Below, one piece after another: positions 36,301 to 39,300 of a stretch of DNA of 64,000 nt. The DNA is from Malacoraja senta. Taxonomy: Eukaryota. The stretch is from assembly GCA_038087875.1 (NCBI GenBank), contig CM075991.1:12588001-12652000 (forward strand). Reading direction: 5' to 3'. The translations under genes and the position numbers were made by a program. The notes beneath the pieces were generated by a model that was given only the letters and a program-made list of their open reading frames with translations, was not told the origin of the DNA and made no database searches. How positions within the stretch are numbered: the stretch's first letter is position 1; every line of letters starts with the position of its first letter.

Positions 36301-39300
36301 ATGCTTTATCCCTAAAGAAGTACATTCTAAAGTCTAATTAGCTGCCTTCCCCACAATGAAACAGTCTATAGAGGTTTAAAATGTTTTAAATTCTCCTAGA
36401 TTATGTTCGTGCGGTCTCTTCCTATTTATTTTGTATCCTATGTTTGTATTCTGTGCATTATTAAATCTCATTCCCCATCTTTTGATCAAATTTACTAACC
36501 TGTCCAGATCCTTTCAGTGGAACAATTTGTTCCATCCGTTTGCAACCCCTCTGAATTGGTATCATCTGTAAACGTAAATGTCTTTTTGTTACATTTTGCT
36601 CCAAAGATTAGGTGCAAAATTCTGCTGAAGAGTTGTTGTCAGAGGGGGAAGTGGAAGACTGCCTGCTGAAAGATTCTACCCCTCAATTCTAAAAATGACC
36701 TGGACATTTTTTCCCCTGATGTTCTGGCCAATATTTCATAATCATAATTTATTAGCCAGCATCTGCAGTTCCCTTGATTAACACGTTGCAAGATTTTGTT
36801 GTCCTTTTATCTTTCACCTTCGTTCCTAAAGGTGTATCCTGAGGGTCTGAAGAAGGGTCTCGACCCGAAACGTCACCCATTCCTTCTCTCCAGAGATGCT
36901 GCCCGAGTTGCGATTTGGCGGTACCTAATCCCTCAGCAGCATTTGCTCTGCTGTTGATAATTGCAATGCTGAATGGTTCTCATTCTCGCAGGTTTAACTC
37001 GCATCCTAAAGGGCCGTGGAGAGATGGTGAAGAACCGCACGGTGGACTGGGCCTTGGCAGAGTACATGGCCTTTGGATCCCTGCTGAACGAAGGTATACA
37101 TATCCGCTTGAGTGGACAGGACGTGGAGAGAGGAACTTTCAGGTATTTTCAATTTCCCTCCTGGGATAAATAAAGTTCTATGGTATCGTAAATAGTTAAA
37201 GTGAGCAGAGTTTATACTTCATTAACGTGTCAGGCTCTCACGCCATGTTTCTCTTCTTGAAAGACATGAATCACTTAATGTCCTCAGGATGCATCAAGTG
37301 CGTAAAGCCCTTTGGCACCAAGAGCTTCGCTATCTGAACCATTTCAGCAAAATTTAGTTTATTCTTACAAGCATTTAAATAGATTTCTGCACCAACCATG
37401 TTCTGGGTTTCAGTACGGAGAGTTACAGAGTGCTGGAGTAACTCAGCGGGTCAGGCAGAATCCCTGGAGAACATGGATAGGTGACGATTTGGGTTCAGTC
37501 TGAATAAAGGTCCTGACCCGAAGCATCACCTAACCATGTACTCTAGCGATGCTGCCTGACCTACTGTTACTCCAGTATTTTCTGTCTTATCTTGGTAAAT
37601 CAGCATCTGCAGTTCCTTGTTTCTTCTGGGTTTTGGTGCATCTATTTGTTGGTTCATTTTAAAACTGCGTTCGAAATAATTTTCAAATCTTGTGCAACAC
37701 TTACTGATTTTTTTAAAACAATGAGTGCATCATTTAGCCATATGTAGTCTGCTCTCTGCAATTTAAGCGAACCATTTGAGTGAGAGACTTTGTACACTTC
37801 CATATCTCCAGTTTCCCTCTCCCCTGACTCTCAGTCTGAAGAAGGGTCTCGACTCGAAAGGTCATCCATTCCTTCTCTTCAGAGATGCTATTGTCTGCTG
37901 GGGCAACAGCATGAGTCTGAAGAAGGGTTTCGGCCCAAAACGTTACCTATTTCCTTCGCTCCATAGATGCTGCTGCACCCGCTGAGTTTCTCCAGCATTT
38001 TTGTGTACCTAAGAAGCTGGACAAACTGGTTAAACGAGCTAGCTCAGTGCTGGAGGGGAGAGTGGACTCTGGGATGGATGTACTTGAGAGGTGTATGAGG
38101 CACAAGGTGCAGGTCATCCTGAAAAACCCCGGGCATCCCCTCCATGTAATTCTGGAGAGTCAAAAGAGCACTCGGAACAACAACCGGCTCCTCTCCCTGC
38201 CCTGTAGAACGGAGCTGTTCAGGAGATCCTTCACCCCTGCAGCCATTAGATTTTATCATTCGGACCGCTAGGCTGTCGGGGGATGCATTTTTGCATTAAA
38301 AAAAAATGGTGATTGTTAATTATTGGTCTTTTAAAGTATTTATTGCTCTCAGGTATTGTCCACCGTGTCCACCGTGTCCACCGTGTCCACCGTGTCCACC
38401 GTGTCCACCGTGTCCACCGTGTCCACCGTGTCCACCGTGTCCACCGTGTCCACCGTGTCCACCGTGTCCACCGTGTCCACCGTGTCCACCGTGTCCACCG
38501 TGTCCACCGTGTCCACCGTGTCCACCGTGTCCACCGTGTCCACCGTGTCCACCGTGTCCACCGTGTCCACCGTGTCCACCGTGTCCACCGTGTCCACCGT
38601 GTCCACCGTGTCCACCGTGTCCACCGTGTCCACCGTGTCCACCGTGTCCACCGTGTCCACCGTGTCCACCGTGTCCACCGTGTCCACCGTGTCCACCGTG
38701 TCCACCGTGTCCACCGTGTCCACCGTGTCCACCGTGTCCACCGTGTCCACCGTGTCCACCGTGTCCACCGTGTCCACCGTGTCCACCGTGTCCACCGTGT
38801 CCACCGTGTCCACCGTGTCCACCGTGTCCACCGTGTCCACCGTGTCCACCGTGTCCACCGTGTCCACCGTGTCCACCGTGTCCACCGTGTCCACCGTGTC
38901 CACCGTGTCCACCGTGTCCACCGTGTCCACCGTGTCCACCGTGTCCACCGTGTCCACCGTGTCCACCGTGTCCACCGTGTCCACCGTGTCCACCGTGTCC
39001 ACCGTGTCCACCGTGTCCACCGTGTCCACCGTGTCCACCGTGTCCACCGTGTCCACCGTGTCCACCGTGTCCACCGTGTCCACCGTGTCCACCGTGTCCA
39101 CCGTGTCCACCGTGTCCACCGTGTCCACCGTGTCCACCGTGTCCACCGTGTCCACCGTGTCCACCGTGTCCACCGTGTCCACCGTGTCCACCGTGTCCAC
39201 CGTGTCCACCGTGTCCACCGTGTCCACCGTGTCCACCGTGTCCACCGTGTCCACCGTGTCCACCGTGTCCACCGTGTCCACCGTGTCCACCGTGTCCACC

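Follow-up and report, generated by a model that had tools for sequence, protein, structure and literature searches.

A short intronic sequence with the layout of a hammerhead ribozyme raises two questions that need to be kept apart: what kind of element the sequence belongs to and how its copies were made, and whether a copy that has come to rest in a gene still works as a ribozyme there. The sequence considered here lies in a 64,000-nt stretch of the genome of the skate Malacoraja senta (the whole of which is referred to below as the window), for which the initial annotation had proposed a dispersed family of self-cleaving or dimer-dependent hammerheads carried by a Penelope-like element (PLE), several of them sense-oriented inside introns of OGDH or PARG-like genes. 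What was observed is real, and it is a minimal hammerhead of type I from the terminal repeat of a PLE, a kind known since 2014.

The motif occupies positions 36845..36876 of the plus strand. The 5' strand of helix I lies at 36845-36846, the CUGANGA core at 36847-36853, an extra A at 36854, a 4-bp helix II at 36855-36866, GAAA at 36867-36870, the palindromic CG at 36871-36872, U16.1 at 36873 and C17 at 36874, with the predicted cut falling between 36874 and 36875 on the same strand. The whole insertion, at 36845..36903 (plus), is a 59-nt PLE terminal-repeat fragment which is shortened at both ends and lies in an intron of an OGDH-family gene. The core has the type I order (CUGANGA ... GAAA ... 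NUH), an extra base follows A9 and is accompanied by a G10.1-C11.1 pair, and positions 15.2-16.2 are palindromic without a loop 3, the palindrome being ACGU in all seven clusters of the family save for CpG decay. As first described, the copies have an extra A, a palindromic ACGU and GUC/GUU triplets. The 4-bp helix I that had been said to close the fold at 36843 can pair there, but it is not a family trait: GU/AC alone is derived from the element, and two flank-derived G's (36843..36844, plus) extend the helix to 4 bp in this copy only. Among 124 intact cores, a set which includes stretches chosen for containing a perfect copy, 89 have a helix I of 2 bp, 28 one of 0-1 bp, 3 one of 3 bp and 4 one of 4 bp; the family helix I is 2 bp, and the longer helix at 36843 is a chance case. 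Closure of the fold by 2 bp also occurs in the alignment of PMC4209133. The 36-nt stretch 36843-36878 folds no better than shuffled versions of itself (z 0.07).

The reported recurrence of the motif was confirmed on the plus strand at 36847-36874, 44305, 22200 and 1283 and on the minus strand at 59800-59827, with the single helix II mismatch noted for the copy at 22200 and with position 15.2 altered in the copy at 1283. The degenerate copies listed near 2811, 20476, 28236, 37836, 37917 and 58890 do exist, those at 2811, 20476, 28236 and 58890 being on the minus strand. Variation of the helix II loop, which had been remarked on alongside a largely kept stem, is real and reflects subfamilies and decay; the copy at 1239, which has the UAAG loop, has lost G8. 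With a loose hammerhead pattern the window yields 7 matches versus 1.28 expected, and with a family pattern allowing up to three mismatches it yields 10 versus 0.00 expected (100 shuffles). A profile built from six natural copies detects 54 family fragments in the 64-kb window; in a genome sample of 484 kb it detects 344. The strict core is kept by 3 of the 54 window fragments (36847, 44305 and 59827), and exact copies of a 31-mer number 13,276 genome-wide (0 in the reversed control). A scan of the window for hammerheads, one of the checks suggested at the outset, yielded no match to an Rfam hammerhead family at E values up to 10, which is expected because the motif has no helix III. It is not a canonical Rfam hammerhead with a stable helix III, its ACGU duplex being calculated at -1.7 kcal/mol. 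Matches to Rfam microRNA families were rejected as hairpins of inverted pairs or simple repeats that score below the gathering thresholds. No other hammerhead families were found by a looser descriptor in 1.46 Mb.

The published consensus for this kind of motif (Cervera and de la Pena 2014, PMC4209133) comprises a U-rich stretch, a short helix I, CUGANGAH, a helix II starting with G, and GAAAN-palindrome-NUH, and the skate motif fits every element of it. Like the hammerheads of that work it is of type I, with the extra base, the G10.1-C11.1 pair, GAAA-C-G-U-H without loop 3, and a U-rich upstream sequence, and its copies are likewise mostly single and away from ORFs. Its 2-bp helix I and 4-bp helix II stand at the short end of the published alignment, and the 56,799 strict cores counted genome-wide (reversed control 0) compare with about 4,000 in coelacanth and 9,000 in Xenopus. 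No shark, skate, Callorhinchus or Leucoraja entries were found in supplement file 2 of that paper. Its authors report no cleavage of monomers, low cleavage of dimers and a predominance of single copies.

The attribution of the motif to a PLE can be examined through the sequences that precede it. The motif opens a module of 95-130 nt that has two preferred 3' ends. A search for the GIY-YIG domain led to a truncated copy (P0001) whose frame stops shortly before the motif and whose GIY-YIG match passes the curated cut-off, and a search with the P0001 protein gave 103 scored matches, five of them with open frames of 1,159-1,237 codons. In the 20 stretches fetched, the motif lies about 116 nt after the stop codon of the long frames, the intact ones among which have 1,222-1,237 codons, with one exception (L133) in which none was seen. 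At one locus (L131) repeat, ORF and repeat follow one another in a tandem whose unit measures 3.9 kb, which places the motif in a PLE terminal repeat. The partner ORF has matches to RVT_1 and GIY-YIG, both Pfam scores for the full ORF being under the curated cut-offs, and its nearest Atlas clusters share these domains; no solved structure matching it was found. Two minus-strand copies in the window, at 20503 and about 8670, retain the last part of the PLE ORF. The first (20398..20833) joins the last ~75 ORF codons, which retain 67% identity to the intact ORF, to the UTR and to a core with G12 altered; the core of the second (8574..9079) has decayed. The PLE carriage that had been proposed is borne out by the RT + GIY-YIG ORFs that end just upstream of the motif and by these two copies, and the link is on that account demonstrated rather than assumed. 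The PLE family that the GIY-YIG search returned first was rejected as the parent, being 32% identical to the partner ORF and having a different hammerhead.

The parent has the features of an EN+ PLE: a single ORF with an RT plus, at the C terminus, a GIY-YIG nuclease, partial tandems (L131), inverted 5' copies (105 of 415) and an optional tail (two clusters of 3' ends). Between RT and nuclease, the partner ORF (P0002) has a C-x4-C-xx-C linker, which fits the CX2-5CxxC form of Neptune; a linker of this kind marks Neptune and Nematis (Craig et al. 2021, PMC8557442). The parent element thus appears to be of Neptune type, the clade being assigned on the linker motif, and the Poseidon clade was dropped on the same motif. 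It resembles the Neptune elements of PMC8557442 in having one ORF in which the RT is followed by a C-terminal GIY-YIG with a C-x4-C-xx-C linker before the nuclease, and in its partial tandems, 5' inverted copies and optional 30-40-bp tail; unlike them, the skate ORF has a low-complexity N-terminal extension of ~490 residues. Residues ~170-490 of P0002 (L122:4300-7971) form a long Pro/Ser/Thr-rich insert, variable in length, which separates a short N-terminal region from the RT-associated motifs. Six copies of the ORF are 95.0-99.8% identical over 3 kb, which implies that the youngest subfamily was amplified recently.

Several other copies in the window were mapped. At 44173..44395 (plus) a head-to-head inverted pair has the intact core at 44305 after a shorter inverted copy and is predicted to form a long hairpin with helix II at its tip. 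A further inverted pair lies at 22112..22326 (plus, with the mismatched core at 22200), while 59696..59865 (minus) has an intact core, with C3 at 59827, together with the downstream module and some of the pyrimidine-rich UTR that lies upstream. At 1086..1450 (plus) an inverted arm precedes a tandem array in which the hammerhead part is repeated as 3.7 units of 44 bp, and the three cores of this array (1203-1365) each have at least one change. Four decayed family fragments cluster at 37408..38015, one on the minus strand (37408-37500) and three on the plus strand (37495, 37836 and 37917). The part downstream of GAAA is repeated in a 66-bp tandem array at 52289..52753 (minus), the unit of which has no CUGA core, and related arrays lie at 46353-46615 (plus), 54295-54464 (minus) and 58744-58898 (minus). 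The 66-bp unit runs from GAAA to the first 3' end, leaves out the CUGA half and is found at many loci (including L051-L067), which implies amplification of a master copy that bore this duplication internally.

Non-LTR retrozymes (bioRxiv 10.64898/2026.07.22.740005; PMC7229834), which have been reported in one chondrichthyan genome and of which one in nine frog dimers was cleaved in the preprint, resemble the present copies in being non-coding, hammerhead-bearing and derived from PLE repeats. In the tandem arrays of retrozymes every unit has a ribozyme, whereas here there is 1 head-to-tail pair within 500 nt among 124 intact cores, the 66-bp arrays have no core, and no tandem units each with an intact hammerhead were found in the 44-bp array, the cores of which are damaged. 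Elsewhere in the assembly (G000:C1:381271108-381271780 and C2:79144961-79145357) there are tandem units of 165 and 219 bp that consist of the repeat module and the first ORF codons; the 219-bp units contain a whole core each and look like small retrozymes. PLE hammerhead dimers were also the subject of Lunse et al. 2017 (cited through the review PMC6765202), which may hold closer examples.

The way in which the copies were made can be read from where they begin. The 5' ends of 119 of the 299 copies at risk fall at -6..0 of C3, a rate of 0.070 per base, versus 0.004-0.019 per base in nine other multi-base bins, and 1 of 471 mapped copies starts at the cleavage site. Cleaved RNA, then, rarely serves as template, whichever process sets the 5' edge. 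The 5' ends also peak at one other base, G12 (22 of 405); a transcription start does not account for this peak, which fits the 66-bp arrays. The perfect 31-mers are preceded by CAGT in 6,050 cases, by another base and AGT in 1,828, by a non-A base and GT in 2,334, and by no GT in 3,064. When copies that run into the ORF start are considered, 29 reach C3, 4 of these going at least 20 nt further upstream, among the 100 matches listed out of 135, counted by eye with a pattern that excludes a quarter or so of the copies. Target-site duplications of at least 9 bp abut both ends of 9 of 57 young stubs, versus 0.1 expected, and are absent from the other 48; their presence at both ends implies insertion of the module as a unit. 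Loose ends at this 5' edge are also seen in DNA contigs of other organisms, which as DNA cannot show where RNAs start or end. A literature search found no published account of the family or of the pile-up of 5' ends; the family may well be catalogued in Repbase or Dfam.

These junctions, taken with the structure of the parent, make it likely that the window copies are stubs of a PLE terminal-repeat hammerhead that were primed internally and copied to the 5' end of the RNA. In the mechanism proposed, the motif of the parent, which separates the end of one RT + GIY-YIG ORF from the beginning of the following one, would be cut after GUC or GUU only when two copies pair through ACGU, the element's protein probably refolding the RNA for cleavage, as published PLE work suggests. 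Reverse transcription would begin at an internal site of the RNA, some 90 or 128 nt downstream of the core, and the cDNA would run only to the RNA 5' end just before CUGA. That end is probably a transcription start at the initiator-like TCAGT, the letters at the 5' edge fitting an initiator consensus. The first repeat of each transcript would yield the short product, and priming from both cut DNA ends would yield frequent head-to-head pairs.

Several of these steps have precedents. PLE repeats hold internal promoters (literature including Schostak 2008, Arkhipova 2013 and 2019, and reviews), and in the anole element PAc, of the Poseidon clade (Frangieh et al. 2024, PMC11167929), priming is internal, at the tail, both DNA strands are cut, and hammerhead cleavage is protein-assisted and not needed for insertion. 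The skate element is like PAc in that the hammerhead lies near the repeat-ORF junction and in that two 3' ends about 35 nt apart match the tail. It belongs to a different clade, and its first ATG (in L131) is about 165 nt downstream of C3, whereas the PAc ORF starts inside the hammerhead; the pile-up of 5' ends at the ribozyme edge seen here is not described in the PAc passages of PMC11167929. A stronger form of the proposal, in which the ~95-130-nt module is the main product of the element, a SINE-like unit that extends from the tail to a start at the 5' edge of the ribozyme with both DNA ends often primed, is put forward tentatively, as a reading with a little less than an even chance of being right.

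The sharp 5' edge could instead be set at the level of DNA or cDNA, through the element's nuclease or through fold-back or a template switch at the short TCAG-N-CTGA palindrome. Such an origin is suggested by several inverted pairs which join exactly at the palindrome, and palindromes at inverted PLE junctions have been taken as self-priming (PMC3846280). The 415 copies with an intact 5' core divide into 144 that continue into the upstream UTR, 105 that meet an inverted arm and 166 that meet unrelated flank within a few bases; these 166, which start at the edge without an inverted arm, and the target-site duplications that abut the edge in some copies argue against a DNA-level process and leave it possible but rather unlikely. 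A capped template might leave an extra G at the 5' junction: the base before AGT, in 100 matches listed and counted by eye, is G in about 46, A in 34 and T in 20, the inverted arms supplying G's, and the 166 copies with unique flank have no excess of G there. In the youngest subfamily, about 8 of 29 junctions show at least two C's before AGT, where the element has AT; these extra C's are possibly untemplated additions or microhomology.

Copying to the RNA 5' end leaves aside whether the hammerhead matters to the parent, and here the master lineages must be separated from the dispersed copies. Across seven clusters of master lineages, which are not independent of one another, 0 of 13 core columns vary outside CpG, versus 16 of 58 downstream (p 0.025, one-sided). 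Five subfamily changes lie inside the fold and all of them keep it (two loop bases, two changes of U-A to U-G, and C17 to U). In DNA contigs of four other organisms, one of which has just 50 records and in which divergent copies would not align, common in-fold variants occur only at positions 17 and 1.1. No two-sided covariation of the helices was found in a family that is too uniform for it, the one-sided U-A to U-G changes being between subfamilies. These comparisons amount to modest evidence that selection may act on the motif in the parent element, without true covariation. The motif might otherwise be a passive relic, without a role even in master copies, as is suggested by the lack of two-sided covariation, by other blocks of the module that are equally invariant, by hammerhead mutants that had no effect on insertion of the anole PLE in vitro (PMC11167929) and by the eight of nine frog dimers left uncleaved (bioRxiv 10.64898/2026.07.22.740005). 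Such a relic is unlikely, given that the subfamily changes all spare the core and keep its pairs and that this architecture recurs across animal PLEs (PMC4209133).

It is improbable that the edge is a 3' splice site, as in Penelope of Drosophila virilis, and that the stubs derive from spliced RNA. The pyrimidine tract and CAG upstream of the core would suit a splice acceptor, and the D. virilis intron ends at helix I (PMC4209133); however, the stubs have no upstream exon in common, target-site duplications abut the edge, the starts are spread over several bases, and no matching joint was seen among the matches listed. Neither splicing of the whole ORF nor capture of host exons had any support among the stubs examined.

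The question of function in the host concerns the dispersed copies themselves. Excess conservation of the core over the flanking element sequence, the lack of which the initial annotation had named as evidence against its proposal, is absent from them: in 84 copies chosen by upstream homology, with the core not looked at, mismatches to the cluster majority at non-CpG positions number 75 of 912 in the core (8.2%) and 338 of 4,255 downstream (7.9%; p 0.79). Dispersed cores decay neutrally, like their flanks. When copies are folded in their natural flanks, the core's purine run is predicted to pair with the pyrimidine tract that follows the cleavage site, the probability of helix II is 0.00-0.06 in three of four copies and that of helix I is at most 0.02; the copy at 44305, inside its long hairpin, is predicted to keep helix II. 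The mapped exons of the OGDH-family gene (2-oxoglutarate dehydrogenase E1) span 23463..49338 (plus), and the sense orientation claimed for its insertions holds locally, with 7 sense, 1 antisense and 3 inverted pairs, but is not general. In 385 kb of genes of known strand there are 64 sense and 55 antisense single insertions, with 45 more as inverted pairs, and the 7:1 bias vanished in the eleven gene stretches outside the window (57 sense, 53 antisense). Intact cores in such genes number 13 sense and 9 antisense overall. As for the PARG-like gene, the copy at 59827 is on the strand of the gene but lies outside its mapped part, which consists of three exons of the PARG catalytic domain (54677..57089, minus).

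That the dispersed copies are active, selected ribozymes cutting host pre-mRNA, as their abundance genome-wide, the seven sense copies among eight single ones in the OGDH-family gene and the 4-bp helix I available at 36843 might suggest, is highly improbable in view of the flank-like decay of the core, the balanced strands outside the window and among intact cores, the low probability of helix II and the inactivity of published monomers (PMC4209133). The further idea that they matter to introns is not supported, given the neutral decay, the lack of strand bias, the rarity of tandem partners and the competing hairpin. The window copies are short, mutating insertion stubs which, on the predicted folds, likely do not cut RNA alone.

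Other features of the region were seen in passing. An OGDH-family gene stands beside a PARG-domain gene twice, in the window (C15) and at G000:C14:16.36-16.52 Mb, which implies that a PARG-like gene was retained in each of the two paralogous regions. A perfect 9-bp tandem array of 148 copies (38357-39691) lies within an OGDH-family intron. Arrays with units of 78 bp and 36 bp, at 32913-33217 and 55515-55700, have in common a repeat tail of another kind and are likely the 3' ends of another retroposon family.

A second PLE family is probably more interesting than the hammerhead finding itself. Its near-identical, intact copies are arrayed head to tail, with telomeric hexamer repeats interspersed, at the ends of contigs or close to them (G000:C5550, C14:18.24-18.41 Mb, C17:1-12 kb, C52 and C1804; L031-L041 and L044-L048), and its 3' end runs into C-strand telomeric repeats. 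ORF1 (~597 aa) has a weak GDSL/SGNH match, ORF2 (759 aa) has an RT and GIY-YIG with a Neptune-type linker, and the hammerhead, which lies upstream of ORF1, has a real helix III and an 8-bp helix I. Esterase ORFs are in print for Neptune elements of fish (literature including Rodriguez 2017); a literature search found no telomere-associated, nuclease-bearing PLE in a vertebrate.

As a ribozyme find the motif matters little, its kind and the dimer model dating from 2014. The 5'-edge junction pattern is the lead most worth pursuing in this family: tens of thousands of young copies together with intact parents make the insertion mechanism readable from the junctions, and the pattern bears on the role of the hammerhead in the PLE life cycle and predicts a capped start at the 5' edge of the ribozyme. 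The results also argue that vertebrate intronic cores of this type are tolerated rather than used. If the module is the main product of the element, it would account for the abundance of short, single hammerheads in animal genomes, cleavage by the ribozyme some 31 nt past the cap would likely be an off-switch or a decapping step for the RNA of the element, and the genome itself would show that cleaved RNA is almost never the template.
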